A stretch of 64,000 bases of DNA from Pseudomonadota bacterium (GCA_021848825.1 JAJZTQ010000002.1:5129-69128); one strand, 5' to 3'. Positions 16,355 through 64,000 are shown, numbered from the stretch's first letter. Notes: a model not told the origin generated them from the letters alone. Numbers and translations: made by a program.

Positions 16355-16378
16355 ATTTTAAACCAGCTTCCCGGTCAA

Positions 16379-16405
16379 TGACAGGTTTTGTCTGCTGCTA
16401 TATTG
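16379..16405 (+). promoter_or_regulatory. possible sigma70 promoter for the ABC-ATPase/msh-like unit
   Basis: ATGACA (16379-16384), 15-nt spacer, TATATT (16400-16405), about 24 nt before the TTG 16429 start. The spacer is short, so the call is weak. Confidence 0.25.
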
Positions 16406-16428
16406 AAACAAATTGTAAGGGGGGCGGC

Positions 16429-18335: not shown

Positions 18336-18378
18336 GCTGATGCTACCTTGACCTTAGTGGCAACAGGAAAACTGAAAA

Positions 18379-26008: not shown

Positions 26009-26244
26009 AGAAGCTGATCTTCCTGATGCTTTTCCTTGTTCAATCCCAATCCTTCGCCGATACGCTGGGGCGGCTTTTCTTCACGAAGCAGGAAAGGGAG
26101 GCGATGGACAGACGGAGCAGGAATCCTGGAAAGGCGACCGAAGCGAATCCGGAGGCGAGCGGAACCGTCCAGAGGAAAGACGGCGGAGAGACAGTCTGGA
26201 TCAATGGCGTTCCCCATCATGTGGAACGGGACAAGAAAAAATGA
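26005..26244 (+). CDS. small secreted protein of unknown function
   Basis: 79 aa from the internal ATG 26005 of the track ORF (ATGA overlap on both sides). Signal peptide MKKLIFLMLFLVQSQSFA, then LGRLFFTKQEREAMD. Confidence 0.5.
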   Translation: MKKLIFLMLFLVQSQSFADTLGRLFFTKQEREAMDRRSRNPGKATEANPEASGTVQRKDGGETVWINGVPHHVERDKKK

Positions 26245-27434: not shown

Positions 27435-28120
27435 AAAAAGGATTCACGCTGGTCGAAATCGCAGTCGTTCTGGCAATAATTGCCCTTCTCGTCGGCGGCA
27501 TGCTGATCCCGATTTCCGCCCAGATAGAAGAGCAGAAGATCATGGATACGCAGGATTCCATCGATCTGGTCAAGGAGGCGTTGATCGGATATGCGGTCGT
27601 CAACAAGCATCTTCCCTGCCCCGACAAGACTGTGCCAACAGGCGCCGGTACTGCGAACGACGGTCTCGAGGATGCGGCAGCAAGCGGTTCCTGCGTAAGT
27701 CAGGAGGGCAATATTCCCTGGGTCACTTTGGGCGTCTCGGGGCTGGATGCATGGGGTAACCGCATCCATTACAGCGTGACACCCGCTTTTTCGAATTCTC
27801 TCGCCAAATTCACGCTCCACTCGACCGGTACATTGCGGATATGTCAGACGTCGACCTGCGCAAACGTAGTGGCCAATGAAATTCCCGCCGTCGTCCTTTC
27901 CTATGGAAAGAATGGCTTCGGCGCGATCAACAGTGCCGGGCACGCCAATGTTTTACCGACGAGCGCAGACGAATTGGCCAATACCGACGGGAACCTCGAT
28001 TTTGTAAGCCGTACCGGCACTCCTTCCGCAGCCGCTTCGGGGCAGTTCGACGACATCGTCGACTGGGTCTCCCCCTATGTGCTCTTCGATCGAATGGTTT
28101 CGGCAGGGGTCTTGCCTTGA
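27431..28120 (+). CDS. prepilin-type minor pilin/pseudopilin
   Basis: MKKG/FTLVEIAVVLAIIALLVGG N-methylation motif. Start trimmed to ATG 27431 (ATGA overlap). Confidence 0.8.
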   Translation: MKKGFTLVEIAVVLAIIALLVGGMLIPISAQIEEQKIMDTQDSIDLVKEALIGYAVVNKHLPCPDKTVPTGAGTANDGLEDAAASGSCVSQEGNIPWVTLGVSGLDAWGNRIHYSVTPAFSNSLAKFTLHSTGTLRICQTSTCANVVANEIPAVVLSYGKNGFGAINSAGHANVLPTSADELANTDGNLDFVSRTGTPSAAASGQFDDIVDWVSPYVLFDRMVSAGVLP

Positions 28121-28872
28121 AGACGATCGCAAGATATACGCTGCTCGAAGCGCTCAGGAACAAAATGCTCTGGCTGATTCTGCCGATTCTTCTCCTCGGC
28201 CTTTCCTTTTCGCATTTTCTTCAGCGGACAGCCATCACCGAGAGCAGCGAGATCCAGGCGGGCTCCCTTGCCTTGATGGAGAGGACAGGGGCGGTGTTCG
28301 TCATGGTTTCCTTTGTCGTGGGGGGCATCTCAAGGGAGTACCAGGAAAAGGGGATGGAATTCTTCCTCGCCTTGCCGATGGGCAGGACCAGCTATCTTTT
28401 CGGCAAGCTTCTGGGATATGCATGCTGTTCGCTCCTGCTTGCCATTCTTTTCACCTTGCCGTTCTTCCTGAGCAACTCGCCTGTCTCGGCTTCGATCTGG
28501 GGCATTTCGCTCTTTCTCGAACTCGCTTTGATGAGTTGTGTGAGCCTCTTTTTCTCGATATCGCTGACCCAGATGCCCCTGGCGCTCGCGGCGGTTTCAG
28601 GCTTCTACCTGCTTTCACGCTCGATGGGGGCGATCATGCTGATCATGAAGGGCCCTCTCGCGGTTCACGGATTCTTGGAGGATATCGCCGACAGGGCGAT
28701 TTCGCTTGTCTCCTTCGTTCTCCCTTCGCTCGACGATTTCACCAGGACCGGATGGATCCTCTATCAGGAAACCAAATGGCAGGTTCTCCTGCCTGTTCTC
28801 GTCCAGACTGCGATTTACCTCTTGCTGATCTCCGCTGCAGCGCTCTTCGACTTCGAGAGGAGGGAAATCTGA
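28117..28872 (+). CDS. ABC-2 family (NosY/GldF-like) permease
   Basis: TTG start in a TTGA overlap with the pilin stop. IARYTLLEALRNKMLW and REYQEKGMEFFLALPMGRTSYLFGKLLG motifs typical of ABC-2 permeases. Six hydrophobic helices. Confidence 0.65.
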   Translation: MKTIARYTLLEALRNKMLWLILPILLLGLSFSHFLQRTAITESSEIQAGSLALMERTGAVFVMVSFVVGGISREYQEKGMEFFLALPMGRTSYLFGKLLGYACCSLLLAILFTLPFFLSNSPVSASIWGISLFLELALMSCVSLFFSISLTQMPLALAAVSGFYLLSRSMGAIMLIMKGPLAVHGFLEDIADRAISLVSFVLPSLDDFTRTGWILYQETKWQVLLPVLVQTAIYLLLISAAALFDFERREI

Positions 28873-28886
28873 ACGCGTCATGGCAG

Positions 28887-29567
28887 GTGAAATGGGTCTT
28901 GATGATTTCGCTGATTCTTCAGATTGTCTGGCACGCCTTTCGGTCAGACGAAAGTCCTGCTGCGCAAAAGCTTCATGATCCGCCTTCGCCCACGGATCTG
29001 AGGCTCGCGTCTTTCGGCGAATCCGAGATGGCCTCGAGATTCATGATGCTCTATCTGCAGTCATTCGACAGCCAGCCCGGAATCGTCATCCCTTACCGGG
29101 ATCTGGACTATCGGCGGGTCAAGAAATGGCTGAAGACGAGCCTGATCCTCGATGAAAGGGATCAATATCCGCTCTTTGCCGCAGCCGGCCTCTATCTCGG
29201 CGTGGAAGACGACAGCAGGAAAAGGATCATGCTCGATTTCATCTACAGGGCATTCGTGAAAAACCCGGAAGAAAGATGGCAATGGCTGGCAAGGGGGATA
29301 TGGGTTGCAAAATACCAGCTTCACGATCTTCCCCTTGCCCTTCGATATGCGGAGGCGCTCGCCGGACGCAGGACCTCGAAGATGCCCGACTGGGTGAGCG
29401 AAATGCAGGTTTTCATCCTGAATGACATGAACAAAATCGATAGTGAAAGGATATTGATTGGCGCCCTTCTTGCCAATGGCAAGATACTAGACCAGAACGA
29501 GAAGTATCTTCTCGAGAGGGAGCTCGCCAGGATAGGGAGGCAAAAAAAATCCGGCGTGCTATGGTGA
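28887..29567 (+). CDS. membrane-anchored hypothetical protein
   Basis: 3' half of the 496-aa track ORF. Start placed at GTG 28887 (ATG 28902 is an alternative), giving an N-terminal anchor KWVLMISLILQIVW. No family recognised. Confidence 0.45.
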   Translation: MKWVLMISLILQIVWHAFRSDESPAAQKLHDPPSPTDLRLASFGESEMASRFMMLYLQSFDSQPGIVIPYRDLDYRRVKKWLKTSLILDERDQYPLFAAAGLYLGVEDDSRKRIMLDFIYRAFVKNPEERWQWLARGIWVAKYQLHDLPLALRYAEALAGRRTSKMPDWVSEMQVFILNDMNKIDSERILIGALLANGKILDQNEKYLLERELARIGRQKKSGVLW

Positions 29568-29596
29568 ATCAAACAAACCTTTTGGAGCGGCAAATC

Positions 29597-30244
29597 ATGG
29601 AAAAAGAAACCGGTTTCACATTGGTCGAGATAGCCATCGTGCTGGTCATCATAGGGCTGATTCTTGCTGCGGTATTGAAGGGGCAGGAAATGATCACCCA
29701 GGGCAAGATCAAGGGCATCATCAACGATTTCAACGCAGTCTTGACCGCCTACAATGGCTACCAGGACAGGTACAAGGCGATTCCGGGGGATGATCCCAAT
29801 TCGGGGGCGAGGTGGACCACGCTGGGGGTAAGCGGAAACGGCAATGGCACGGTCGACGGAGAATACAACGACGCAACTGGCGGAACTTCGGAAGCGACCT
29901 ATTTCTGGGCAGATCTGAAATTCGCCAATTTCTTTCCGGGATTGACCGACACTGCAGCCCACGCCGAGGCCCAGCCTTCGAATTCAGTCGGAGGGATCAT
30001 AGGGGTTCAGAACAATGCGCTGGGGATGTCGGGGCTCTCGATCTGCATGTCGGCGGTGGTATACAAGATTGCGCAATCCGTGGACACGCAGATCGACGAC
30101 GGCAATGCGATGACAGGTTCGGTTCGCGCAACCGTTCAGACCGCTGGCGCCACGCTCGCCCAGTTGCCTGACCTGACGGGAGGGGCTCCGGCAGCCAATT
30201 ACGTTGACGGCAGCACCTACGTCATATGCCGCTCCATTCCCTGA
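29597..30244 (+). CDS. type IV pilin (candidate major subunit, copy 1)
   Basis: MEKETG/FTLVEIAIVLVIIGLILAAVLKGQEMITQGKIK prepilin motif. C-terminal Cys pair (SICMS...VICRS). Start trimmed to ATG 29597. Confidence 0.85.
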   Translation: MEKETGFTLVEIAIVLVIIGLILAAVLKGQEMITQGKIKGIINDFNAVLTAYNGYQDRYKAIPGDDPNSGARWTTLGVSGNGNGTVDGEYNDATGGTSEATYFWADLKFANFFPGLTDTAAHAEAQPSNSVGGIIGVQNNALGMSGLSICMSAVVYKIAQSVDTQIDDGNAMTGSVRATVQTAGATLAQLPDLTGGAPAANYVDGSTYVICRSIP

Positions 30245-30254
30245 GGAAATTGGC

Positions 30255-30950
30255 GTGAAAGGGGGGCAGTCGGGCTTCACGCTGGTCGAGATCGCGATCG
30301 TTCTCGTGATCATCGGCCTTCTGATAGGCGGCGTGCTCAAGGGCCAGGAAATGATCACCCAGGGCAGGATCAAGAGCGCGATCATCGATTTTTCCGGCAT
30401 CAGTGCCGCCTATTACGCCTACATAGACCGATACAAGGCGCTGCCCGGAGACGACAGCCAGGCCACAGCCAGATGGGGCGCGGCAATTCTTCCCAACAAT
30501 GCAGTCGGCAACGGCGACGGCGTGATCAGCGGACCCTACTATCAGACGGCGGTAGGCACCGGCGCTACAAACGAGACGGCAGACTTCTGGTCCCACCTCA
30601 GGGCGGCAGGGCTCGTGACCGGAAACAGTCTCGCCAATCCGGTCACGCTTCCCATCAATTCTTCCGGCGGCATCATCGGGGTGCAGACCGGCAATGGCGC
30701 TGCGGCACCCGGGGAGGTGCTGCTGACAGCCGGCGCAGGCACGGGACTCATCGGTTTCATGATCTGCTCGACCCGGCTTCCGGACAGGGTCGCAGCGGCA
30801 GTGGATGTACAGCTGGACAACGGCAGTCCGAATTCAGGCAGCATCCGCGCCTGGCAATCAGGGGGCGCCCAGGATCCTGTTCCTGCGGCGCCCGCAGGTC
30901 CGCCCTATTCCGACAACGGCACCGCAATGTCGATATGCAGGGCGCTCTAG
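30255..30950 (+). CDS. type IV pilin (copy 2, tandem paralog)
   Basis: GTG 30255 after GAGGAA. VKGGQSG/FTLVEIAIVLVIIGLLIGGVLKGQEMITQGRIK. C-terminal Cys pair (MICST...SICRA). Confidence 0.85.
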   Translation: MKGGQSGFTLVEIAIVLVIIGLLIGGVLKGQEMITQGRIKSAIIDFSGISAAYYAYIDRYKALPGDDSQATARWGAAILPNNAVGNGDGVISGPYYQTAVGTGATNETADFWSHLRAAGLVTGNSLANPVTLPINSSGGIIGVQTGNGAAAPGEVLLTAGAGTGLIGFMICSTRLPDRVAAAVDVQLDNGSPNSGSIRAWQSGGAQDPVPAAPAGPPYSDNGTAMSICRAL

Positions 30951-31005
30951 TCTGCTGACCATTGGAGATTCAGGAAGCACGTATTCAATCAAGAGGAGGT
31001 CGTCC

Positions 31006-52631: not shown

Positions 52632-52697
52632 GATTACCATATATTGCGGCAGATGGTGCATAATTGTCCCGATTGTCCGTATGATTCGAAATATGAC

Positions 52698-53507
52698 ATG
52701 GATTCAAGCCGTGTACTGGAAATTGCCAGCAAATCCGATGCAGGTCTTGTGCGTTCGCACAACGAGGACAGCATCGGTTCGGATGCTTCAATCGGGCTTG
52801 CAGTCCTGGCTGATGGCATGGGCGGATACAATGCCGGGGAGGTGGCGAGCGGCATCGCCGTTTCCATGATCACATCCGGCATGAAGGCCGCGCTTTCCGG
52901 CCGGGGACAACCGGATGAGGCCAGCGGGGAAAGCATGTTGCGCGAACAGGTTGCGGCTGCAAACAGCGCGATATTCAATGCCGCAAGGCAGAGAAAGGAA
53001 TGCGAAGGCATGGGGACGACCCTCGTCGCCGCGCTTTTCTTCGATGGGAAGGTGAGCGTCGCCCATCTCGGGGACTCCCGCATGTACAGACTGCGCGGCG
53101 GGAAGCTGGAGATCATGACGCACGACCATTCCCTGCTGCAGGAGCAGCTTGACAGCGGCATGCTGACAAAGGAAGAGGCCAGGTTCTCCCAGTACAGGAA
53201 CATCGTGACGAGGGCGCTGGGAATCGAACAGGATGTGGAGATAGAGATCAGGAGCTTCGATGTGCAGCCCGACGACCTCTACCTGCTTTGTTCAGACGGG
53301 CTGAATGACATGCTCGAAGACGAGGAAATAGGGCTTGTCCTGGATACGCTGAGATCGAATCTGAAGCTGGCGGCCGAGAAGCTCGTGGCTCTCGCAAATG
53401 AAAATGGCGGGCGCGACAACATTTCGGTTATCCTCGTGAAAGTGAAGCAGGGAATCGGGGTCCAGCGCGGACTGATGTCGAGGCTCATGTCATCATTCAG
53501 GAAATAA
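52698..53507 (+). CDS. PP2C-family Ser/Thr protein phosphatase
   Basis: KSDAGLVRSHNEDS, LADGMGGYNAGEVAS, HLGDSRMYR, LCSDGLNDML, NGGRDNISVILV. Start set at ATG 52698; the upstream ATG 52644 cannot be excluded. Confidence 0.85.
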   Translation: MDSSRVLEIASKSDAGLVRSHNEDSIGSDASIGLAVLADGMGGYNAGEVASGIAVSMITSGMKAALSGRGQPDEASGESMLREQVAAANSAIFNAARQRKECEGMGTTLVAALFFDGKVSVAHLGDSRMYRLRGGKLEIMTHDHSLLQEQLDSGMLTKEEARFSQYRNIVTRALGIEQDVEIEIRSFDVQPDDLYLLCSDGLNDMLEDEEIGLVLDTLRSNLKLAAEKLVALANENGGRDNISVILVKVKQGIGVQRGLMSRLMSSFRK

Positions 53508-53521
53508 AGGGGCAGTTTATC

Positions 53522-54235
53522 ATGTCGAAATTGATTCTCAGCCTTGACGGGAAGGAGCTCAAGGAAGTCCCGCTCGACAAGGAGCGCATCCTGATAGGGA
53601 GAAAATCGCAGAACGACATCCAGATCGACGATGTCGCCGTGAGCGGCGAGCACGCAGTCGTCATCACGATTCTCAACGATTCCTTCCTTGAGGACATGGG
53701 GAGCACGAACGGCACCAGAGTCAATGGCACCAGCGTCAAGAAATACTTCCTGCAGAACCATGATGTGATAGGGATAGGGAAATACAAGCTCACCTACATC
53801 CACGAGGCGGTCCCGCGTCCCGCCATTCACGAGCCGGCCCAGCGCGCTGTGCCTGACCTCGAGAAGACGGTCATGCTGCGCCCCTCCAGCGTATCGGCGA
53901 TGCTGCCTTCCTCCGTTTCCGCGCCGGTGGAAAAGTCGGAGGAGAAGGCGCCCCCTCCTCCGCCCAAGCCATCGTCAGGCGCTGCGGTGCAGCTTCTCAC
54001 CGGACCCAGTGCCGGACGGGAGCTCGATCTCGTCAAGAACCTGACCACATTGGGCAAGCCCGGCGTACAGGTTGCGGTCATCACGAGAAGGCCGCAGGGC
54101 TTCTTCATCACGCATGTCGACGGGGAAAAATCGCCTGTGCTCAATGGCAAGCCGATAGGATTGCAGCCCCATCCCCTCAAGGACCATGATATCGTCGAGC
54201 TGCTCGGCATCAAGATGGAATTTTTTCTGAAATAG
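53522..54235 (+). CDS. FHA-domain protein (canonical N-terminal FHA, Pro-rich linker, degenerate C-terminal FHA-like domain)
   Basis: N-domain IGRKSQNDIQIDDVAVSGEHAVV...GSTNGTRVNG. Linker EKAPPPPPKPS. C-domain TTLGKPGVQVAVI...VLNGKPIG...HDIVELLGIKMEF lacks the R/SxxH phosphothreonine-contact residues. Confidence 0.8.
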   Translation: MSKLILSLDGKELKEVPLDKERILIGRKSQNDIQIDDVAVSGEHAVVITILNDSFLEDMGSTNGTRVNGTSVKKYFLQNHDVIGIGKYKLTYIHEAVPRPAIHEPAQRAVPDLEKTVMLRPSSVSAMLPSSVSAPVEKSEEKAPPPPPKPSSGAAVQLLTGPSAGRELDLVKNLTTLGKPGVQVAVITRRPQGFFITHVDGEKSPVLNGKPIGLQPHPLKDHDIVELLGIKMEFFLK

Positions 54236-54243
54236 GCAAAACA

Positions 54244-55008
54244 GTGAAGCTCAGGGTTCTCGGGTGCAGCGGCGGGATAGGAGGAGAATTGCAGACCACT
54301 TCCTTTCTTCTGGATGATGACATACTGATCGATGCGGGAACCGGGACCGGAAGGCTGTCCCTGGAAGCGATGCGCAACATAGATCATATCTTCCTCACCC
54401 ACTCCCATCTCGATCATGTCGCATTCATTCCGCTGCTTGTCGACAGCGTGGGCTATCTCAGGCAGAAGCCGATAACGGTCCATGCGATTCCTGAAACCAT
54501 AGCGGCATTGAAGCAGCATCTTTTCAACTGGGTGATATGGCCCGATTTCAGCGTGATCCCGAACACGGAATCTCCCTATCTGGTTTTCGAGGAGATTTCG
54601 GTGGGGGAAACGGTCAGGCTGGGGGATCGGAAAATCACGGCCTTGCCTGCAGTCCATACCGTACCTGCAGTCGGCTATCATCTGGAAAGCGGAAAGGGAA
54701 GTCTCGTTTTCAGCGGCGATACCACCACCAACGATGCATTCTGGGAACGGGTGAATGAAATCGACGATCTCAGATACCTGATCATCGAGACCGCCTTTTC
54801 AAACGGCGAAAGGGAAATCGCGATCCTTTCGAAGCATCTTTGTCCCAGCCTTTTGGGCGAAGAACTGGCTAAACTTGAAAAGGATGTGCCTGTCTACATC
54901 ACGCATCTCAAGCCTGGGGAATTGTCGCTGATCATGGCGGAGATCGGCGAGGGCATATCGGGGGTCAGAACAGAAATGCTTGTAAACGAACAGATATTCG
55001 AAATATGA
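54244..55008 (+). CDS. class II-like 3',5'-cyclic-nucleotide phosphodiesterase (MBL fold)
   Basis: MKLRVLGCSGGIGG...TSFLLDDDILIDAGTG...IFLTHSHLDHVAFIPLL matches the HxHLDH class II PDE signature region. GTG start. Confidence 0.7.
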   Translation: MKLRVLGCSGGIGGELQTTSFLLDDDILIDAGTGTGRLSLEAMRNIDHIFLTHSHLDHVAFIPLLVDSVGYLRQKPITVHAIPETIAALKQHLFNWVIWPDFSVIPNTESPYLVFEEISVGETVRLGDRKITALPAVHTVPAVGYHLESGKGSLVFSGDTTTNDAFWERVNEIDDLRYLIIETAFSNGEREIAILSKHLCPSLLGEELAKLEKDVPVYITHLKPGELSLIMAEIGEGISGVRTEMLVNEQIFEI

Positions 55009-55009
55009 C

Positions 55010-57388
55010 ATGTCCAAACTGACAGACATATCGAGCGGCAGCATCCCTGTGCCGGGGGAAAGCCTTGCCGATGTCAGCATCAAGCTGAATTTCACCAAGG
55101 CCCTCCAGTCCCTGACCAACAGGATTCATGCCACGGGAAATTTCGACGAGATCATCTTCGATCTCGGCAAGGACATCTGCACCCTTTTCAACGCGGACAG
55201 GATCACGATCTACGTCGTGAGCGAAGACAAGACATCCATCGTCTCGAAAATCAAGACAGGGCTTTCCTCGTTCAAGGACTTGAAGCTGCCGATTTCCGAT
55301 CAAAGCATCGCGGGCTATGTCGCGAGGCACAAGAAGATGGTGAACGTCAAGGATGTGTACGACGAAAAGGAGCTGCAGTCCTACAGTCCCCAGCTTCACT
55401 TCATGAGGGAGGTGGACAAGCGCACGGGCTACCGGACCAAGCAGATGCTCGTCGCGCCGATAGTCGATGCGGAAAACGAGCTCGTGGGCGTGCTTCAGAT
55501 CATCAACAACAAGTTCGGCCTGCCATTTCAGCCGATGACGGAAGAGGGGGTGGTCGAACTCGCCAAGACCCTCGCCATCGCATTCAAGCAGAGACAGCGT
55601 CCCCATCAGCTCGTCAGGACGCGTTTCGACGTGCTGATAGCGGAAGGCGCGATTTCTGCAGTCGAGTTCGATCTTGCGTCCAGGTCCGCGAGAAGGCGGG
55701 ACGTGCCGCTGGAAGACGTGCTGCTGGACGAATTCCAGGTGAAGCCGGCTGCATTGGGCAAGTCGCTTGCTCACTTCTTCGACGTGGAATACGAGCCTTT
55801 CAGGTCTGACAGGACAAGACCCGCCGATCTCTTGAAGAACATCAAGCGGGATTATGTCGAAGCGAATCAATGGCTGCCTGTCGAGGAGGCCAAGGAAGGC
55901 ATCGTCATCATCAGCCCGGACCCGGAGAGGGCGCAGGGTTCCCGCATTCCCCACAATGTCTTTCCGAAGAGAAAGCTCGTTTTCAGGGTCTGTTCCCATC
56001 GGGAATTCGCGCAGACGGTCAACCTTTTTTATGCCGAAGAAGGCGGTTCTTCCATAGGAGATCTGCTTTCTTCCATGGATGACGAATCGGAGAGCGAGGA
56101 CATTTCCGACGAGCTTTCTGCTGCAGCGGACAACGAACTCGTCAAGCTCGTCAACAAGATCATCACGGATGCGCACAGGATGGGGGCATCCGACATCCAT
56201 ATCGAACCTTCTCCTGGAAAGGGAAAGACGCTGGTCAGGTTCCGCAAGGACGGAACGCTGCTGCCTTATGTCGAAGTCCCCGCCTCCTACAGAAACGCCA
56301 TCGTTGCCCGCGTCAAGATCATGTGCGATCTGGATATCTCCGAAAAGAGAAGGCCGCAGGACGGCAAGATCCTTTTCAGGAAATTCGCGCCGCTCAACAT
56401 CGAATTGCGTGTCGCGACCATCCCCTCGGCGGGAGGGGTGGAAGACATCGTGATGAGGATTCTGGCATCGGGCGACCCCATTCCCCTTGAAAAGATAGGC
56501 TTCTCTCAAAAGGCGTTCGATACGCTGAAATCGATCGTCACGAAGCCTTACGGCCTTTTCCTGGTCTGCGGACCGACAGGTTCGGGAAAGACGACGACGC
56601 TCCACTCGGTGCTCGGATACATCAATACCCCGCAGACCAAGATATGGACTGCCGAGGATCCGGTCGAGATCACCCAGAAGGGGTTGCGGCAGGTTCAGAT
56701 GAATCCCAAGGCCGGCCTCACTTTCGCGACGGCGATGCGCGCCTTTCTCCGCGCCGATCCGGATGTGATCATGGTGGGCGAAATGCGCGACAAGGAGACC
56801 ACATCGGTAGGCATCGAGGCGTCCCTCACCGGGCACCTCGTGATGTCGACGCTTCACACCAACAGCGCACCCGAGAGCATCGTCAGGCTGCTCGACATGG
56901 GCATGGATCCTTTCAATTTCTCCGATGCCATTCTCGGCATACTGGCGCAGAGGCTGATCAAGCGATTGTGCAGGCATTGCAGGAAAGCCTCGGTTGCAAC
57001 GGAACGGGAAATCAGGCAGCTCCTTGCCGAATACTGCGAGGAGCTGAAGCATACTTCGGCCTGGAAGCAGGATTCAGAAGCGGTTCTGAAGAAGATCTAC
57101 GAAGAATGGGCTGGAAGCTACGCGAATGAAAAAGGCGAATTCGTCCTTCATCATCCTGTCGGCTGCCCCGAATGCAGCGGCACGGGATACAGCGGCCGTC
57201 AGGGCATATTCGAACTGCTCAAGGGCACGGACGAGATCAAGCGGCATATCCAGGAAAGGGCGCAGGTTTCAACGCTTTTTGCGACCGCGCTTGACGAAGG
57301 CATGCGCACCCTGAAGCAGGACGGTATAGAAAAGGTGCTTCAGGGCATCACCGACATGCATCAGGTGAGAACGGCCTGCGTCAAATAA
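55010..57388 (+). CDS. GspE/PilB-family secretion ATPase with N-terminal GAF domain
   Basis: 792 aa. GAF-like region approx aa 30-195 (ADRITIYVV...LVAPIVDAENELVGVLQIINN), T2SSE_N-like region, Walker A GPTGSGKTTT, DPDVIMVGEMRD, GHLVMSTLHTN, Zn motif CRHC...CPEC. Confidence 0.85.
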   Translation: MSKLTDISSGSIPVPGESLADVSIKLNFTKALQSLTNRIHATGNFDEIIFDLGKDICTLFNADRITIYVVSEDKTSIVSKIKTGLSSFKDLKLPISDQSIAGYVARHKKMVNVKDVYDEKELQSYSPQLHFMREVDKRTGYRTKQMLVAPIVDAENELVGVLQIINNKFGLPFQPMTEEGVVELAKTLAIAFKQRQRPHQLVRTRFDVLIAEGAISAVEFDLASRSARRRDVPLEDVLLDEFQVKPAALGKSLAHFFDVEYEPFRSDRTRPADLLKNIKRDYVEANQWLPVEEAKEGIVIISPDPERAQGSRIPHNVFPKRKLVFRVCSHREFAQTVNLFYAEEGGSSIGDLLSSMDDESESEDISDELSAAADNELVKLVNKIITDAHRMGASDIHIEPSPGKGKTLVRFRKDGTLLPYVEVPASYRNAIVARVKIMCDLDISEKRRPQDGKILFRKFAPLNIELRVATIPSAGGVEDIVMRILASGDPIPLEKIGFSQKAFDTLKSIVTKPYGLFLVCGPTGSGKTTTLHSVLGYINTPQTKIWTAEDPVEITQKGLRQVQMNPKAGLTFATAMRAFLRADPDVIMVGEMRDKETTSVGIEASLTGHLVMSTLHTNSAPESIVRLLDMGMDPFNFSDAILGILAQRLIKRLCRHCRKASVATEREIRQLLAEYCEELKHTSAWKQDSEAVLKKIYEEWAGSYANEKGEFVLHHPVGCPECSGTGYSGRQGIFELLKGTDEIKRHIQERAQVSTLFATALDEGMRTLKQDGIEKVLQGITDMHQVRTACVK

Positions 57389-57389
57389 T

Positions 57390-59519
57390 TCAGTCCTTCA
57401 TCTCCCTTTTCTTGCGGTAGCTCGACAGCAGCTTGTACGCGATCAGTCCGAGCATGATCAGTATCAGTGCCAGGATGCCGTAGAAAACATAGGGATGGGC
57501 ATAGAGAAAGGAGGATGCGAAAGAGATGTCCCCCTTCTCCCCGGTGGTGTATTTTTTCCCGACGGAGATCGACACCACGTCATAGTTCGGCACATTGAGC
57601 TTGATCAGCGAAACGCCGCCTTTCATCCTCGCCAGTATGTCCGGCTGCAGTAGGGCATCGCCGAGCTTGGCAACGTCGCCGTCGTCCTGCGCCGTCATGA
57701 GCACAACGGACCTGCCTTTCTTGTATGGCGATTCGAATTCCATGACAAGTCCGGTGCCGTTTCCGAGTCCGCTCAGCTGCTTGCTGAATGAAATCGTTGT
57801 TTCGCTGTCCCAGCCCCTGCTGACGGGATAGGGTATGGTGGCGATGCCGTGCAGTTGTACGGGCGCGCGCGCCATGATCGACTCTGGAATGGAGGAGGAT
57901 TTCCCGATGACCAGTATTTCTCCTTCCCAGTTCTTCGGCTCGCTGAAGGAGATTCGGGTTTCGAAGAGGGGGAAACCGTTCTTCTGGGTGATCATTCCTA
58001 TCATGTCGAGCGCCGCGTCGATCGAGGCGTCATCGGGTTTGGGCAGATAGACGATGGTCTTGAACCCGTCAGGCCACCTCGTGAAGGGAAAGCCGTTGAG
58101 CGAGAAGAGTTCGAGCTTGGGCAATTCGACGAAATGCGGCATGGGCGGAAAGAAAAGCGTCGAATTTCCGAAAATCGTCACGAAAAGCCCATCCGTTATG
58201 TCGACATCGCATACCTGGTGCTGGGTATTGAGATAGGGCTTGAATGAAATCGTGTTGGTTCCCGGCTTGAACAGGTAGGTCGGGATATCCATCCTGTAGT
58301 CCTTGATGTAATTGCCATCAGGATTGTTGAGGTGGATATCGCGAAACTCCTTGCCATTCACGTTAATGCTGAGCGAGGAATCCTGGCGCAAGCCTGAACC
58401 GTAGGAAAGGTTCAATATCAGTTTTGCATACTGGTTCTGCCTGATCAGAAAGTCGGGCGGGAGCCTGAAGGTGAGGATAGATGCGGCATCGACAAAACCG
58501 TGGAAGCTGTGGGAATCCATCCCCAGCGTCTTGAAATCATAGACCTTGTCTGAAGAAAGCACTTCTCTTCCGCCATACATCGAAATGTCGGGCATGGTGA
58601 AGCTGTAGGCGCGCAATTCATCCGTTCCCGGATAAGGGAGGGACATGTTGGTGAAGGTTTCGGCAGCGATCTTGATCGCCTTGGCCGTGTCGCCGGACAC
58701 CACAATCAGGGCGTGCTGATCGTCCTCTGCTCCGGCTTCGGGCAAATGGAGAATCTTGATGTAGCCGCCCTGTCCCTCGGGAAGGGTCTTGCCGTATCTG
58801 GCGAGCACCCCGTCTGCAAACCGGGTCGTTCCGATCAACACATTGTCCATCCCCGGCTTGATATCGAGAGAATGCGAGAACTTTACCTGGCGATAATCGA
58901 AATGCCTCGCGATGCCGGATGCGACGATTCCGGCCAGCGTCGTGATTTCGGGGGAAGTGGCATCCATGACCAGGTTGATCGAGGCCTCGGGAACCTGTTT
59001 CGGGTCGAGAATCAGACCGATTGCTTCGGCCAGATGCAGCGGCAGCGGCTTCAGGCTGTAATCGAGCTGGATGGTGGAATCGGTCAGGCTGATGTTTGTC
59101 CAGAGATCCGGGGAACAGATCTGTTCGCACTGGCCGGAGAGATAATGCTGGACGACCTGGAAAGAAACGGTGTTGTATCCTGCCTTCAGGTGGTCAGGGG
59201 GAAGCGGCACATCCACCACGCCTTCCGGCGACTGGGTATTGAGCTTGAATTGCGAGACGGACATGCCATTGAGCTGCACCGCCATCTGGGAGCTGCTTGC
59301 AATCATGTTGTTCGAAGCCATGTAGTGCAGCTTCAGGGTGGCGCCGTGCACATCCCATCTTTCAGGAATGGGAATGGACAAATTCTGAACCGAGCGGATG
59401 CATTTCAGTTCGAGGGTGGGAACCGGCGAGAACTTCTGCAGCGGCAGGGTGAGTGTATCGGCAAATGCTGTCGTGCTCAGGAACAGCATGGCAAGGATCA
59501 GGCTGAATGATTTTGTCAT
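57390..59519 (-). CDS. bcsB: BcsB-like periplasmic subunit of a cellulose-synthase-type complex
   Basis: 709 aa. Signal peptide MTKSFSLILAMLFLSTTAFA, large periplasmic body, single C-terminal TM anchor (FYGILALILIMLGLIAYKLL), directly downstream of bcsA. Family call rests on architecture and context. Confidence 0.7.
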   Translation of the reverse strand: MTKSFSLILAMLFLSTTAFADTLTLPLQKFSPVPTLELKCIRSVQNLSIPIPERWDVHGATLKLHYMASNNMIASSSQMAVQLNGMSVSQFKLNTQSPEGVVDVPLPPDHLKAGYNTVSFQVVQHYLSGQCEQICSPDLWTNISLTDSTIQLDYSLKPLPLHLAEAIGLILDPKQVPEASINLVMDATSPEITTLAGIVASGIARHFDYRQVKFSHSLDIKPGMDNVLIGTTRFADGVLARYGKTLPEGQGGYIKILHLPEAGAEDDQHALIVVSGDTAKAIKIAAETFTNMSLPYPGTDELRAYSFTMPDISMYGGREVLSSDKVYDFKTLGMDSHSFHGFVDAASILTFRLPPDFLIRQNQYAKLILNLSYGSGLRQDSSLSINVNGKEFRDIHLNNPDGNYIKDYRMDIPTYLFKPGTNTISFKPYLNTQHQVCDVDITDGLFVTIFGNSTLFFPPMPHFVELPKLELFSLNGFPFTRWPDGFKTIVYLPKPDDASIDAALDMIGMITQKNGFPLFETRISFSEPKNWEGEILVIGKSSSIPESIMARAPVQLHGIATIPYPVSRGWDSETTISFSKQLSGLGNGTGLVMEFESPYKKGRSVVLMTAQDDGDVAKLGDALLQPDILARMKGGVSLIKLNVPNYDVVSISVGKKYTTGEKGDISFASSFLYAHPYVFYGILALILIMLGLIAYKLLSSYRKKREMKD

Positions 59520-59536
59520 TTTATGGATATTTCTTG

Positions 59537-62224
59537 CTAGATATTGTTTTCGCGTGGTTTGGCAGGTCTTCTGAAAAATATGGGTGATGAGCGTATCAGC
59601 TGCAGGCTGCTTCCGTATACGTATTTGACGATTCTGGGATAAGTCGACGTGTCCGGAATGAATTCAGTGCCGCAAAGAAGCTTGTTGCCGCGCTTCACCG
59701 CCCTTCTTATCCTGCAGTCGAACTGATATTGGGCACCCTCTTTGGTCGTGATGTCGAGCGTCACAGGCTCGCCCCCATGCAATGGCAGGGGCAATTCAAT
59801 CAATATCCCGATGCCGGAGAGCGATATATCCATGATATTGCCTTGGACGCTCGCATTCAGGCTGGGGAAGTAAACCATGGCCCGTCCTTTGCCTTCGATG
59901 CGCTGAAACTTGCGAACTGGCCTCTTTTTCACCAGTTCAAAAATCCTGGCCTGCCCCTGGTAAAAATAATAAACAGTTCTGCTCAGGGTCATCAACAACA
60001 TGTCAAGCAGCAAAGACGAGGTAAGGCACTGTATCAAGAGCCTCCAGAGGAATTTCATGGAGTCTGAAAAGAAAGCGAATCCGCTTACCCAGATTGCCTT
60101 GACGCCCATTTTCGAAAAATGCCAGAGCATGTGGAATGTATCGCGTTTCCTCGCCTTCGCGTTCCAGATTTCCTGCCATCTTTGGCTGTCGCCGAAGACG
60201 TAGCTGATGATTTCTGCAGCAGGCGCGGCCAGGAATTCGCTCCCGCAGACATACCTGCCGCTCATCTTTTCGATGTGCCTGATATTGTTTTCGAAGCGAT
60301 ATTCACGGCCATAGCTGTCCCTGACTTCCAGAATGATCCTGTCCTGCTCCATTGGTAAAATGGACGAATCGATTTCGAAACCTATCCCTGTCCTCGAGAC
60401 GTCGCGGACTTTGCCGACGACCGATTTTCCCAGGCGCTGGAAGCGGACGATCACGTCACCGCTGGACGCTATCCGGTGAAATTGCCGCTCCTGCTTTCTC
60501 TCCCACAGCGCGCCCAGTGAAACCAGGACGATGGAAAGGTTATAAAGCGACCATGCGCCCGTCACTGCGATAACGTCGCGCATGATCGGTGTGGCAAACC
60601 ATTTTATGACTGAAAGAATCAGGGCGGCGACGTTGAAGGCGATGAGCAGGAAAAAAGGCGTTGCAATCGGACTCAGGTATTCCCTTGTGTTGAGTTTTCC
60701 CTTCGGGGTAACCTTGAATGTCGGTTTCCAGGGGTTGGCCACCGCGGAGAGGATGGCCGGAATCAGGAAAAGAGACTGGATCGTCTCGTAGATCTCCGAG
60801 AAGAAAGGGTTCCTCGAGCCGGAATAGAAAAAGTCCATGATCACCGAAATGCTCAGCACGTACGGAAGCGTGAACGAAATGATCTGAAGCCACGAGGCGT
60901 TATAGATGTTGAATCCGAGAATGAGGTAGGCGGCGGGGGCGATGAGGTAGATCACGCGCGCAAAACCGAACAGCCAGAAAAAACTGAAGTTGAAGTAATT
61001 CAGCCTTTGCCAGAAAGAAAGTCCCTTCATCTTCAGCGGGTTGTTGAACTGGGCGAGCTGTATCATGCCTTGCGCCCAGCGCGAGCGCTGGATCACATAG
61101 TCGTCATAGGTTTCCGGAGACAAGCCGCAGACCATCGGCTTGTTGACATAAATGCTCCTGTAGCCGCGCCTGTGCAGATGGAAGGCGGTTTCGACATCTT
61201 CCGTGATGGTGTTGCCGTAGAGTCCGCCTTCCTGTTCGAGATGCTTGCGCCTCAACAGCGCCGCAGATCCGCAAAAGTAGCTGGAATTCCAGAAATCCAT
61301 GGCGGGGTGAAGTTTGCGATAGAACAGGTCGCTTTCGGCATAGGGATTGGCGATGCCTGTCAGGCCCTTTTCGACTGGAGACGGGTTGATGAAAAAATGC
61401 GGCGTCTGAACGAGGAATACTTTCGGATCGACGATGAAATGCCCTACGGTATTCTTCAGGATATCCTTTGTCGGCACATGATCGCAGTCGAGAATCAGCA
61501 CAAGATCGCCCGAAGTGTGCTTCAGCGCATGGTTGATATTGCCGGCCTTCGCTTTCTGATTCGTTTCGCGCGTGATGTATCCGACGCCGAGTTCAGCTGC
61601 GACCTGCCTCAGGCTGCGATGCCTTTCCCATGCGTCCGTTCCGGATTCAGCATGGCTGCGCTTGTTCCGGGTGCTGCCGTCATCCAGGATATAGACATTC
61701 AGCTTGTCTTTCGGATAATCGATCTGGGCTGCCGCAGTGGCGGTAATGCGAACGATTTCTTCGGGTTCGTCATAAGTCGGGATGAGGACATCCACAGTGG
61801 GCAGCAATGCAGCATCTTCAGGCAAGGGAATGATGGGGCGATCGAGAGGCCAGACATTGATGAACATGCCGAGCAGGAGCATGACGAAACCGTATATTTC
61901 GGCAAGGTAGACGAGCATCATCGCTGCGAAATCCAGTGGGCCGGTATAGAAAAGGGTGCCGAATGTCCGCCACTGGATGTAGCGCAACCCCATGAATGTC
62001 ACCAGCAGGATCATGAGCAGGCGCCAGGGCTGCTCCCTTGATTTTTTCCAGAGGTACATCATGAAAATCAGGGCGAAGCCGCCCCATCCGAGCACCATCT
62101 GCCTGGAAAGGTCATAATATTCGTAGGTGAACTGAAGCAGATAGACAAGGGCGGCGATCAATATCGCACCGGTGGCCGCAAGCTGCAAATTGCTGTACTG
62201 TGCACGCACGCCTGTTCGGGTCAT
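59537..62224 (-). CDS. bcsA: BcsA-like processive GT2 beta-glycan synthase with two PilZ modules
   Basis: GT2 motifs DDGS (181-184), DCDH (246-249), TED (341-343), QRSRW (379-383). PilZ 1 RQFHR (580-584) plus DVSRTG (608-613). PilZ 2 RKFQR (771-775) plus DISLSG (799-804). Confidence 0.88.
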   Translation of the reverse strand: MTRTGVRAQYSNLQLAATGAILIAALVYLLQFTYEYYDLSRQMVLGWGGFALIFMMYLWKKSREQPWRLLMILLVTFMGLRYIQWRTFGTLFYTGPLDFAAMMLVYLAEIYGFVMLLLGMFINVWPLDRPIIPLPEDAALLPTVDVLIPTYDEPEEIVRITATAAAQIDYPKDKLNVYILDDGSTRNKRSHAESGTDAWERHRSLRQVAAELGVGYITRETNQKAKAGNINHALKHTSGDLVLILDCDHVPTKDILKNTVGHFIVDPKVFLVQTPHFFINPSPVEKGLTGIANPYAESDLFYRKLHPAMDFWNSSYFCGSAALLRRKHLEQEGGLYGNTITEDVETAFHLHRRGYRSIYVNKPMVCGLSPETYDDYVIQRSRWAQGMIQLAQFNNPLKMKGLSFWQRLNYFNFSFFWLFGFARVIYLIAPAAYLILGFNIYNASWLQIISFTLPYVLSISVIMDFFYSGSRNPFFSEIYETIQSLFLIPAILSAVANPWKPTFKVTPKGKLNTREYLSPIATPFFLLIAFNVAALILSVIKWFATPIMRDVIAVTGAWSLYNLSIVLVSLGALWERKQERQFHRIASSGDVIVRFQRLGKSVVGKVRDVSRTGIGFEIDSSILPMEQDRIILEVRDSYGREYRFENNIRHIEKMSGRYVCGSEFLAAPAAEIISYVFGDSQRWQEIWNAKARKRDTFHMLWHFSKMGVKAIWVSGFAFFSDSMKFLWRLLIQCLTSSLLLDMLLMTLSRTVYYFYQGQARIFELVKKRPVRKFQRIEGKGRAMVYFPSLNASVQGNIMDISLSGIGILIELPLPLHGGEPVTLDITTKEGAQYQFDCRIRRAVKRGNKLLCGTEFIPDTSTYPRIVKYVYGSSLQLIRSSPIFFRRPAKPRENNI

Positions 62225-62225
62225 A

Positions 62226-63032
62226 TCACCTTGCGGATTGTGCAGGGCTGATAGAATCGCTTACGGAGCGCCGGCTGTCCCTCGTCTGTTCCTTGCCGAC
62301 CAAAGCCATGACTGCCGCCGCGATGCCTATGAGCAGCACGGCCATCAGGAAGAATTTCATGCCGAATGATCTTGCAGGGGGAGAACTCTGGGCAGGCTTG
62401 TCGTCCAGGCTCCTGCCCTGCTTGTCGAGCTCTATTTCCTTCGGATTCCAGAATACCTTGTATGCGTTGAACGCATCCTTCTTGCCTTTGAGCGTGATCT
62501 GCTTGATGAACCGGCAATAGTTTTCGCTCTTGTCTGAAAGGCTGTTGTAGGTTTCTTCGGAGATATAGATTTCTCCTGCCGTGGCGGAAGATTCGAAGCG
62601 CGATGCGGTGTTGACGACGTCTCCTGCAATGTCGTTCTTTTCGATGATGCATTTTCCGGTATGCATGCCGATCCGCATCAATACGGGCGTCTTGTATTTT
62701 TTCGACATGTTGAGTCCGTCCATGCCTTGCTGGATGCGCACAGCCGCACGGACCGCATCCTGGGCATTTTCGAAATAGGAGAGCGTGCCGTCCCCGATGG
62801 ACTTGATGAACACCCCGTTGTTTTCCTTGATCGCCGGCAACACGATCTGGTTCTGGTCCTTGATCAGCGTGCGGCTGACCAGGTCACCTTCGGTCTCTGC
62901 TATGGTGGTCGAGCCCTTGAGATCGGTGAATACGACCGTCAGTACCTTGGTGAACTTGTCGTTGAAAACTGCTTCCAGCTTTTCGCGCTCTTCTAGATAC
63001 TTGTCCAGTTCATCCTGTTTAGATTCGTCCAC
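62226..63032 (-). CDS. class III nucleotidyl cyclase (adenylate-type residues) with C-terminal membrane tail
   Basis: GTG start 63032. VVFTDLKGST, IKSIGDGTL, NDIAGDVVNTASRFES. C-terminal TM FFLMAVLLIGIAAAVMALVG. Stop lies 1 nt from the bcsA ATG. Confidence 0.85.
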   Translation of the reverse strand: MDESKQDELDKYLEEREKLEAVFNDKFTKVLTVVFTDLKGSTTIAETEGDLVSRTLIKDQNQIVLPAIKENNGVFIKSIGDGTLSYFENAQDAVRAAVRIQQGMDGLNMSKKYKTPVLMRIGMHTGKCIIEKNDIAGDVVNTASRFESSATAGEIYISEETYNSLSDKSENYCRFIKQITLKGKKDAFNAYKVFWNPKEIELDKQGRSLDDKPAQSSPPARSFGMKFFLMAVLLIGIAAAVMALVGKEQTRDSRRSVSDSISPAQSAR

Positions 63033-63191
63033 GCATTCCCCTATGGCTCACAAAAATGTTCAGCTGCAATTTCTCCTTATTGCAGAACATGCTGTATGAT
63101 CCATTTAACTTGATAAGTCTGCTGGACAGTCTACACAATATGATTTTCGAATTCCATAAGATTAGTTAATGGGATTTCATGGAAACAAAAC

Positions 63192-63217
63192 AATTTGTTA
63201 AAGTAATTTAACAAATT
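63192..63217. promoter_or_regulatory. perfect 11-bp inverted repeat AATTTGTTAAA-gtaa-TTTAACAAATT (candidate operator)
   Basis: Read directly. Sits in the AT-rich 272-bp divergent region between the cyclase-bcsAB operon and the ORF starting at 63305. Confidence 0.45.
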
Positions 63218-63304
63218 CGTCATCTAACATATGGAATCCTTTCTGGAATCTATTCAGCTTGCGTCGGGGTTCACTTTGTAGTGGTGAAACAGATATTAAC
63301 GATA

Positions 63305-64000
63305 ATGAAAAACGATTTTGTCGTTAAATTAAACAATGGGGAAAATCGGCGGGCCGGCTCATGGCGCGTCGCGGCGGCGATGCTTGCCGGATGCCTTTGC
63401 GCACCCCTCTGGCTTCACGCCGAAACCCCTCATGCCGCTCCCTCCGCGGCGCCGGACGAAAGACCGTTGTGGCGTCTGTTGAACGACAAAAAGTACCGGG
63501 AACTCGAGAAAGAAATCGGCAGCATGAAATCGGCTCATCCTGGATGGAAGCCGCCTGGGGTGTTGGTCAGCCTTCTGAAGCAGAACCTGCTCCGAATCGA
63601 AATCGAGGATGCAATCGCGAAAAGGGATGCGGGGAAAATAGCGGAACTGGGGAAAACCGATCCGGAATATTTTTCCTGCGATCATGTCGACTGGGCATGG
63701 GCGCTCGCCGATGCGCGCGCCCTGCTCAAGGAGGCTTCGCTGCTTCAGGGTCTGTACCGGCTCATTCCGGAGTGCAGGGAAGCAGATCGCCTTGCAACGC
63801 TTTACAAGGCCAGGAAATGGCTGAACGATGCTGACTACGGATTGCTGCTCGAGCGGGAGGCAAAAGCGAAGCGGTCGGGGCGGGATGAGGCGGAATTCGA
63901 GCGGCTGCGCTATGAATTTTCAATGGCGCAGCTCAAGACTTCCAATCGGGACTTCAAGACGGAGCTCTCCCGATTGTCGGGCGATATGGCCCGGTATCGG
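63305..64000 (+). CDS. secreted helical-repeat hypothetical protein (3' end outside window)
   Basis: The frame beginning at ATG 63305 is open for all 232 codons to the window end (not in the track, as there is no stop). MKNDFVVKLNNGENRRAGSWRVAAAMLAGCLCAPLWLHA looks like a signal peptide. The rest is Lys/Glu/Leu/Ala-rich and helical (PLWRLLNDKKYRELEKEI...). The track ORF 63361-63834 in another frame is Arg/Gly/Cys-rich and rejected. Confidence 0.5.
   Translation, partial: MKNDFVVKLNNGENRRAGSWRVAAAMLAGCLCAPLWLHAETPHAAPSAAPDERPLWRLLNDKKYRELEKEIGSMKSAHPGWKPPGVLVSLLKQNLLRIEIEDAIAKRDAGKIAELGKTDPEYFSCDHVDWAWALADARALLKEASLLQGLYRLIPECREADRLATLYKARKWLNDADYGLLLEREAKAKRSGRDEAEFERLRYEFSMAQLKTSNRDFKTELSRLSGDMARYR

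Follow-up and report, generated by a model that had tools for sequence, protein, structure and literature searches.

We describe here the last 11 kb of a 64,000-nucleotide stretch of DNA from a Pseudomonadota bacterium (GCA_021848825.1, JAJZTQ010000002.1:5129-69128; the whole stretch is called the window). In this region a cellulose synthase (bcs) cluster that includes the gene for a class III adenylate cyclase, which we name module A, converges on an operon that encodes a PP2C phosphatase, an FHA-domain protein, a predicted cyclic-nucleotide phosphodiesterase (PDE) and a PilB/GspE-like ATPase, which we name module B. The original prediction, made from the sequence alone, reported that a single base pair separates the two operons and proposed that they form one self-contained polysaccharide module regulated by a cAMP-type nucleotide and by phospho-Thr. 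The single base is there: the convergent stop codons of the ATPase and bcsB genes are separated by position 57389 alone. What we find across genomes is that the cyclase is inherited together with bcsAB, that the PDE operon is conserved elsewhere as a signalling operon of its own, and that the two sit side by side here as the result of a lineage-specific insertion.

Genes at the locus

We checked the open reading frame (ORF) calls on the stretch against the original prediction, and we assigned domains with Pfam and NCBIfam. All the genes lie where they had been placed and carry the domains they had been given. Since all domain E-values are far below chance level, chance is not an issue for the gene assignments. 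The features are as follows (aa, amino acids).

52644-53507, plus strand: PP2C Ser/Thr phosphatase, 287 aa (NCBIfam Stp1_PP2C_phos, 252 bits against a cut-off of 230); module B
53522-54235, plus strand: FHA-domain protein, a phospho-Thr reader, 237 aa (Pfam FHA, 74 bits); module B
54244-55008, plus strand: class II-like 3',5'-cyclic-nucleotide phosphodiesterase of the metallo-beta-lactamase (MBL) fold, 254 aa (PDEase_II, Lactamase_B_2); module B
55010-57388, plus strand: PilB/GspE-like hexameric-type ATPase, 792 aa (Pfam GAF, MshEN, and T2SSE with 388 bits); module B
57390-59519, minus strand: BcsB, the periplasmic membrane-anchored partner of BcsA, 709 aa (Pfam BcsB, 357 bits, full profile); module A
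59537-62224, minus strand: BcsA, the cellulose synthase catalytic subunit, 895 aa (TIGR03030 CelA, 790 bits against a cut-off of 699); module A
62226-63032, minus strand: tail-anchored class IIIc adenylate cyclase, 268 aa (Pfam Guanylate_cyc, PF00211, 68 bits); module A
63033-63304, no strand: AT-rich divergent intergenic region between the cyclase and bcsC genes (read from the sequence)
63305-64000, plus strand: N-terminal 232 aa of BcsC, the ORF being cut by the window end (completed in the identical contig L001); module A

A cyclase co-inherited with bcsAB

A scan of one genome per species returns 374 relatives of the cyclase, from which we kept the best 80 loci with 10-kb flanks. The proteins of the window were compared with these 80 cyclase loci by tblastn, and the neighbouring genes were clustered. 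In 70 of the 80 loci, bcsA and/or bcsB is found within 10 kb of the cyclase gene. The order cyclase>bcsA(>bcsB) accounts for 29 of these loci, the convergent order cyclase> <bcsB<bcsA for 28, and other orders for the remaining 13. The cyclase loci come from Gallionellaceae, Nitrosomonadales, Burkholderiales, Nitrospinota, Nitrospirota, Elusimicrobiota, Ignavibacteria and Geobacteraceae, so that the linkage spans about six phyla and at least three gene orders. Because it persists over this range and through rearrangement of the genes, we attribute it to selection for co-inheritance, and the conclusion holds up that BcsAB clusters have in the cyclase a conserved accessory gene, co-inherited with bcsAB. 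Ten cyclase loci are without bcs genes; seven of them are cut short on one side, whereas the remaining three, of which two are from Planctomycetota/Kuenenia and one is from Nitrospirota, have flanks of the full 10 kb. Further neighbours are BcsZ in 49, BcsG in 25 and BcsC in at least 22 of the 80 loci.

We also observe in 15 cyclase-bcs loci a protein of about 269 aa without a Pfam match, internally duplicated and beta-rich (for instance at 8453-9262 in locus L055), which is possibly an outer-membrane protein.

The cyclase is predicted to consist of an N-terminal helix (aa 2-26), the cyclase domain (aa 27-203), a disordered linker, a single C-terminal transmembrane (TM) helix (aa 222-244, about nucleotides 62301-62369) and a short conserved tail. 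It has the fold of the cyclase homology domain (CHD): the PF00211 score compares with a cut-off of 21.9 bits, the matches in the PDB by sequence are 3mr7, Ma1120 and Rv1900c, and an AlphaFold2 model (pLDDT 80.6) aligned with Foldseek superposes on the class IIIc cyclase Ma1120 with a TM-score of 0.92 and a root-mean-square deviation of 1.7 Å. Six catalytic residues, D37, K77, D81, D134, N141 and R145 in full-protein numbering, are invariant in 80/80 loci. These include the two metal-binding Asp residues and the transition-state Asn and Arg (D37, D81, N141 and R145), all in place, and the Lys/Asp pair that specifies ATP (K77/D134), in which D134 precedes N141 by 7 residues as in the canonical alignment. 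Going by sequence and model, the protein is a class IIIc adenylate cyclase with an intact catalytic site, and its earlier designation as the writer of a cyclic nucleotide finds here the full adenylate-cyclase catalytic set. The family shows 50-80% identity across phyla and conserves both the TM helix and an R-S-I-x-x-S motif in the C-terminal tail; NCBIfam has no specific model for this bcs-linked family. In the window, the stop codon of the cyclase gene lies 1 nt from the start of bcsA.

At 25 of the 80 loci, 22 of them bcs-linked, the cyclase carries at its N-terminus an in-frame Ser/Thr kinase (a Pkinase-CHD protein with the TM helix at the end). The idea that a bcs system receives further input from a cyclic mononucleotide and from phospho-Ser/Thr survives in the form of this frequently kinase-fused cyclase, and not through the contribution that had been assigned to module B.

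Fusions of the cyclase and its relatives can be seen in several forms. The kinase-cyclase fusions are found at L007, L009, L012, L015, L017, L020, L033, L038 and 17 more loci (examples are proteins P0241, P0243 and P0068). The nearest non-orthologous relatives include the fusions cyclase-FHA-FHA (P0252, P0259) and cyclase-HDOD (P0269). In a Nitrospirota locus (L083, 4696-16501), a related cyclase of 424 aa with an extended C-terminus stands without nearby bcs genes, and its neighbours encode a Ser/Thr kinase-beta-helix protein, an MshEN-T2SSE ATPase, a double cNMP_binding-rhodanese protein and a GAF-SpoIIE phosphatase.

The cellulose synthase core and its surroundings

The translation of BcsA contains the motifs QRSRW, TED, FCGS, RQFHR..DVSRTG and RKFQR..DISLSG. 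Aligned to 5ej1, it has the D,D,D,QxxRW residues of the glycosyltransferase together with the RxxxR and DxSxxG motifs of PilZ, and its matches in the PDB (4hg6, 4p00 and 5ej1) reach an E-value of 1e-130. The domain assignments and the motifs bear out the earlier description of a BcsA with two PilZ modules and of a BcsB. PilZ1 is at about aa 575-690 (nucleotides 60155-60502) and PilZ2 at about aa 766-861 (nucleotides 59642-59929), both with RxxxR and DxSxxG; the second lies in the C-terminal region of aa 700-895 (59537-60127), after an extra hydrophobic segment. BcsB adjoins BcsA, and the outer-membrane component is also present, as the divergent helical-repeat protein that had been noticed from 63305 onward is BcsC. 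In the identical public contig L001 the whole protein has 791 aa, with TPR_19 and BCSC_C (167 bits) matches in Pfam. There is no bcsD, bcsE or bcsG within 10 kb in this genome (L001), a layout nearest to a minimal bcsABC, and no bcsD, bcsE, bcsQ or bcsR is seen near the cluster.

We considered the tandem PilZ as a trait that accompanies the cyclase, and rejected it. It is confined to about 18 loci of the closest subclade (L004-L016, L019, L020, L024, L031), all in the cyclase>bcsA>bcsB order, and the cyclase-linked BcsA proteins outside that subclade have one PilZ each. We found no mention of a tandem-PilZ BcsA in the papers that we checked.

The intergenic region between the cyclase and bcsC genes contains a perfect palindrome of 26 nt, AATTTGTTAAAGTAATTTAACAAATT, at 63192-63217, which a dimeric regulator may use as its operator. 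This palindrome is absent upstream of the cyclase among the 30 related loci listed. Upstream of the cyclase there is neither a CRP-type site nor a conserved operator, the palindrome being the only striking feature. Promoter and terminator scans of 57000-64000 give matches no commoner than in shuffled sequences, and no riboswitch, for c-di-GMP or otherwise, is matched when the window is scanned against Rfam over its full length.

Past bcsC, contig L001 continues with genes for a STAS protein, a HATPase_c_2-cNMP_binding-SpoIIE protein, a BrkB-cNMP_binding protein and a second STAS protein, and then with a GAF-HD-GYP gene and a pilin gene. The proteins of 559 aa (HATPase_c_2-cNMP_binding-SpoIIE) and 451 aa (BrkB-cNMP_binding) belong to a partner-switching set at L001 2151-6398; elsewhere, neither the cyclase nor the PDE has this set as a conserved neighbour. 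In the 559-aa protein, the cNMP-binding domain (cNMP, cyclic nucleoside monophosphate) reads PVSA where the phosphate-binding PRSA, with its Arg, would be expected.

Two probably independent modules and an insertion

Had the two convergent operons been one self-contained module, their genes should travel together, which is the synteny test that the original prediction set for itself. They do not. The PP2C, FHA and PDE genes occur in 0/80 of the cyclase loci, and a distant ATPase in 1/80. In the opposite direction we assembled 83 PDE-anchored loci (80 from a metagenome scan with ortholog alignment and 3 from exact look-ups), and bcsA, bcsB and bcsC occur in 0/83. One 236-kb contig of a metagenome-assembled genome appears to carry both modules, at a distance of more than 10 kb from each other.

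A close relative (L084/L085) has the same backbone as the window, rpoN-hpf-ptsN-hprK-rapZ-NusG_II-...-SucCD-TerC-Usp-PP2C-FHA-PDE-ATPase, with an ATPase 81% identical to that of the window. In this relative, the GAF-HD-GYP gene starts 15 bp after the ATPase gene and is followed by the pilin gene, and there are no bcs genes at this site. In L001, which is identical to the window, about 12.7 kb separate the ATPase gene from the GAF-HD-GYP gene, and this block consists of bcsB-bcsA-cyclase, bcsC and the STAS/cNMP partner-switch genes. The adjacency of modules A and B is a lineage-specific insertion, and a derived one, because the same backbone in the close relative passes directly from the ATPase to GAF-HD-GYP. 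Base composition was tried as evidence for the insertion and rejected, as a GC content of 0.541 in the block and 0.563 in the flank differ too little.

The different reading is that the whole 11 kb is one circuit, in which the bcs-linked cyclase would write the signal, the PDE would erase it and the GAF-ATPase would read it, together with the PP2C and FHA proteins controlling the polysaccharide. In a weaker version, the circuit would be a rewiring specific to this lineage, after insertion of the bcs block into a module B without its CHASE2-cyclase. All the parts are present and, as judged from their sequences, probably functional; the CHASE2-cyclase and CHASE2-kinase that accompany module B in other genomes are not found in the window; and cAMP is diffusible, so the PDE and the GAF readers could answer to any cellular source of it. 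The repeated fusion of the cyclase family to Ser/Thr kinase or FHA domains points the same way, as does the distant Nitrospirota locus in which a related cyclase lies by a kinase, a PilB-like ATPase and cNMP-binding proteins. Against this stands the fact that the two gene sets are never within 10 kb of each other outside this lineage. As for the weaker version, L084, L085 and L089, which are without the insertion, are also without the CHASE2 genes, so the loss is independent of the insertion. In addition, it is general knowledge that BcsABC does not need a pilus- or secretion-type motor to export cellulose. We regard a single circuit as unlikely. It is likely, in our judgement, that the window contains two independent modules: a bcs cluster with its own cyclase as a dedicated accessory (module A), and a separate signalling operon (module B).

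The PP2C-FHA-PDE-ATPase operon

The PDE loci show what module B looks like in other genomes. Amongst the neighbours of the PDE in the 83 loci we find FHA in 58, the GAF-ATPase in 56, a CHASE2-adenylate cyclase in 54, PP2C in 45, GAF-HD-GYP in 44 and a CHASE2-Ser/Thr kinase in 34. From these counts we derive the canonical order (TerC-Usp)-CHASE2 kinase-PP2C-FHA-CHASE2 cyclase-PDE-GAF ATPase-GAF-HD-GYP. In the full module (L086, L095, L099-L102 and about 50 others), two CHASE2 membrane sensors flank the PP2C and FHA genes, and the CHASE2-adenylate cyclase has a K/T specificity pair. No CHASE2-kinase or CHASE2-cyclase gene is found anywhere in the window, which holds a reduced variant of the module. 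We found no description of this operon, in its CHASE2 form or otherwise, in the literature that we searched. Its identity as a separate cNMP and phospho-Thr signalling operon built around a pilus-type motor ATPase holds up.

The PDE matches Pfam PDEase_II (PF02112) with 54 bits, above the cut-off but partially (profile positions 78-167 of 340). It has the signature HSHLDH, and its best match in the PDB, over 70 residues, is the yeast class II enzyme PDE1 (4ojv). Against the NCBIfam model of the named cyclic-nucleotide-degrading PDE it scores 39 bits, where the cut-off is 400. With at least 8000 members the family is very large, and the NCBI name for members is 3',5'-cyclic-nucleotide phosphodiesterase. 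In the public annotation the window PDE has 239 aa and a start at 54289, which omits 15 codons (54244-54288) that encode the family-invariant LGCSGGIGG; the GTG at 54244 is the better start, because this N-terminal sequence is then included. The label of eraser that the PDE had received is reasonable given its HSHLDH signature and its match to PDE1, and its membership in a bcs-linked system is not sustained.

The ATPase has an N-terminal GAF domain at aa 45-191 (nucleotides 55142-55582) and a T2SSE core with a tetracysteine motif, and it scores under the NCBIfam cut-offs for PilB and GspE. The top match of the GAF domain in the PDB is the cAMP-binding GAF of Anabaena CyaB2 (1ykd, E-value 6e-28), followed by PmGH and the cGMP/cAMP GAF domains of PDE2, 5, 6 and 10 (E-values down the group from 6e-28 to 1e-8), and its top 20 matches are all cNMP-type GAF domains or the GAF-HD-GYP enzyme PmGH. 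It has the motif NK-x4-F-x3-TE, close to the NKFDE signature, and it is 26% identical (E-value 3e-9) to the GAF domain of the HD-GYP protein. By these similarities the domain is of the cNMP-binding type, in agreement with its earlier designation as a candidate reader. The N1E domain is MshEN-like, with a weak Pfam match (32 bits), and the 24-residue c-di-GMP motif RLGxx(L/V/I)(L/V/I)xxG is unrecognisable by eye in aa 205-260 of the ATPase. Because this motif is unrecognisable and a cNMP-type GAF is added, the GAF-ATPase is probably regulated by a cyclic mononucleotide rather than by c-di-GMP.

Within module B, the PDE would act as the eraser, and the cNMP-type GAF domains on the PilB-like ATPase and on the HD-GYP protein as readers. 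The writer in most other genomes would be the module's own CHASE2-adenylate cyclase, which is missing here together with the CHASE2 kinase. The labels of eraser and candidate reader are thus reasonable, but they belong to a module that normally comes with its own writer. As a whole, the operon PP2C-FHA-(CHASE2 kinase/cyclase)-PDE-GAF-ATPase-GAF-HD-GYP offers a compact candidate case of cAMP-to-c-di-GMP cross-talk on a pilus-type motor.

Elsewhere in the window, at 15400-31000, we observe a second complete cluster of the pilus/secretion type, with genes for an AAA_22 protein, a secretin, a TPR protein, an MshEN and T2SSE ATPase and T2SSF, together with several N_methyl pseudopilin-like genes and unannotated genes. 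The ATPase of that cluster (21095-22792) is 36% identical to the core of the GAF-ATPase. This cluster could be the machine served by the orphan GAF-ATPase at 55010-57388.

What the cyclase may do for the synthase

It was through cellulose synthase that c-di-GMP was discovered, and most accounts of the regulation of this enzyme make it dependent on c-di-GMP. A co-inherited cyclase with an intact catalytic site, often fused to a kinase, points to an unstudied second regulatory layer.

In the mechanism that we propose, the cyclase would be made together with BcsA, given the 1-nt gap between the genes, and would be held in the same inner membrane by its C-terminal helix, where it would serve Bcs machines of this type as their dedicated accessory. 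Local cAMP would be a second input to cellulose synthesis, or a read-out of it, and the gating of BcsA by c-di-GMP through its PilZ module or modules would be retained. The most concrete route that we can propose would run from cAMP to GAF-HD-GYP, from there to c-di-GMP, and from c-di-GMP to the PilZ of BcsA, with cAMP-sensing GAF-HD-GYP enzymes lowering c-di-GMP at the synthase. GAF-HD-GYP orthologs with 59% identity adjoin cyclase-bcs genes in two gene orders, in the genome of the window and in four Nitrosospira-type loci, which are closely related (Nitrosospira, Nitrosovibrio and Nitrosomonadaceae). Direct control at the protein level would also be open, by way of the kinase fusions or of the conserved TM helix and C-tail. 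The production of cAMP, its site of action and any physical contact of the cyclase with BcsA or BcsB are what we infer from the genes. It is possible, and we propose it tentatively, that Bcs systems of a widespread class have in the membrane-anchored, often kinase-fused cyclase a subunit or dedicated regulator that had so far escaped recognition, adding local control by cAMP and phospho-Ser/Thr.

Several points weigh against our interpretation. The synthesis of cAMP by the cyclase is a prediction from its sequence. There is no cNMP-binding domain in BcsA, BcsB or BcsC, and no cAMP reader gene is conserved across the 80 cyclase loci, the cNMP_binding genes found past the window occurring in 1-2 of the 80. 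The GAF-HD-GYP adjacency is seen in only 5 of 81 loci (the 80 and the window locus). The linkage count describes the best-scoring 80 of 374 relatives, with the more distant 294 outside it, and nearly all the loci come from metagenome-assembled genomes, some on contigs that are short or chimeric. With regard to the insertion, the GC content of the block is little different from that of its flank, and the event is read from synteny, because composition is unhelpful and the marks of mobile elements were sought in gene content only.

The cyclase could alternatively be a structural or regulatory Bcs subunit that acts through contacts of its TM helix and C-tail or through the fused kinase, with cyclisation secondary or with a product other than cAMP. 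The conservation of the helix and of the R-S-I-x-x-S tail would fit such a role, as would the apparent translational coupling of the cyclase gene to bcsA, the frequent kinase fusions and the lack of a conserved cAMP reader nearby in the 80 loci. Six catalytic residues that are invariant throughout, the K/D pair included, would be unexpected in a pseudo-enzyme, and we give this explanation a slim chance. One could also suppose that the adjacency means nothing for cellulose, and that the cyclase is a general source of cAMP that is inherited with the cluster. No mechanism is known that links cAMP to BcsA, and the three loci that have a cyclase and full flanks without bcs genes agree with such a view; but a linkage kept over about six phyla and three or more gene orders is the classical signature of co-inheritance, which makes this very unlikely. 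Finally, a Pycsar-like anti-phage system, with the MBL phosphodiesterase as its counter-measure, is a negligible possibility that we reject as an identity for the pair: the weak matches of the cyclase to PycC (42 bits) and a weak Apyc1 Pfam match recorded for the PDE suggest it, but the PycC matches are weaker than that to the generic cyclase domain, the K/D pair points to ATP and not to CTP or UTP, no effector gene (PycTM or PycTIR) is present, and the conserved neighbours are bcs genes.

Our preferred reading, that of a cyclase dedicated to the synthase, gives a concrete and testable candidate gene, the bcs-linked cyclase itself. Iron oxidisers, ammonia oxidisers and Nitrospinota are among its carriers, and in these organisms polysaccharides of biofilms, stalks or sheaths matter ecologically.

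Comparison with known systems

In the classification of Romling and Galperin of 2015, bcs operons reportedly fall into type I with bcsD, type II with bcsE and bcsG, and type III with none of these, often with bcsK in place of bcsC. To our knowledge, the cyclase gene is part of none of the three types. In our full-text literature searches, whose coverage did not extend to that 2015 review, we met no account of bcs clusters with a class III cyclase. Neither a 2021 FEMS review of Bcs systems (PMC8892547) nor an operon census (PMC7112194) mentions an adenylate cyclase or cAMP in bcs clusters, and a 2026 paper on bcs cluster diversity has no adenylate cyclase or cAMP as a part of the cluster. We find no earlier description of a bcs cluster variant with its own adenylate cyclase; the Bcs core itself is ordinary.

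With the Bcs systems of known structure, R. sphaeroides BcsAB (4hg6, 4p00) and E. coli BcsABC (7lby, 9fmv), the cluster shares the BcsA motifs, the c-di-GMP-type PilZ, BcsB, and a BcsC made of TPRs and a barrel, and its relatives likewise carry BcsZ and BcsG. It differs from them in that one of its own genes encodes a class III adenylate cyclase or a kinase-cyclase fusion, and in that the BcsA of the window subclade has a second PilZ after an extra hydrophobic segment. The cyclase shares with mycobacterial Ma1120 and Rv1900c (4wp8, 5d0e, 1ybt) a common fold, the six catalytic residues and a short arm region. The identity is 25-27%, and an N-terminal helix with a C-terminal anchor, or an N-terminal kinase, replaces the partner domains of the mycobacterial enzymes.

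For module B, the closest comparisons come from three families. The GAF domain of the ATPase has its closest counterparts in the cNMP-binding GAF domains of CyaB2 (1ykd) and of PDE2, 5, 6 and 10 and in that of PmGH (4mcw), and it has an NKFDE-like motif, but it is fused to a motor ATPase of the PilB/GspE type, and its ligand binding is predicted. The PDE has in common with yeast PDE1 (4ojv) the MBL fold and the HxHLDH motif. Vibrio fischeri CpdP is a class II cAMP phosphodiesterase too. In contrast to class II enzymes, the window PDE is short (254 aa), its match to the Pfam class II profile extends over about a quarter of the length, and its substrate is a predicted one. ATPases of the MshE/PilB type are regulated by c-di-GMP through the MshEN domain (PMC4624772). 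The window ATPase belongs to the same ATPase family and has an MshEN-like N-terminal domain, but unlike MshE it has no RLGxxLLxxG recognisable by eye, and it has the added cNMP-type GAF.

The nearest parallel in concept to the bcs-linked cyclase is in E. coli, where cellulose synthase is served by local c-di-GMP signalling through DgcC and PdeK, whose contact with the synthase complex has been studied experimentally (PMC7397504). In both cases there would be a dedicated membrane-bound nucleotide-signalling enzyme for one synthase complex. DgcC and PdeK are GGDEF and EAL proteins that synthesise and degrade c-di-GMP, whereas the enzyme described here is a class III cyclase that is predicted to make cAMP and is encoded in the cluster itself.

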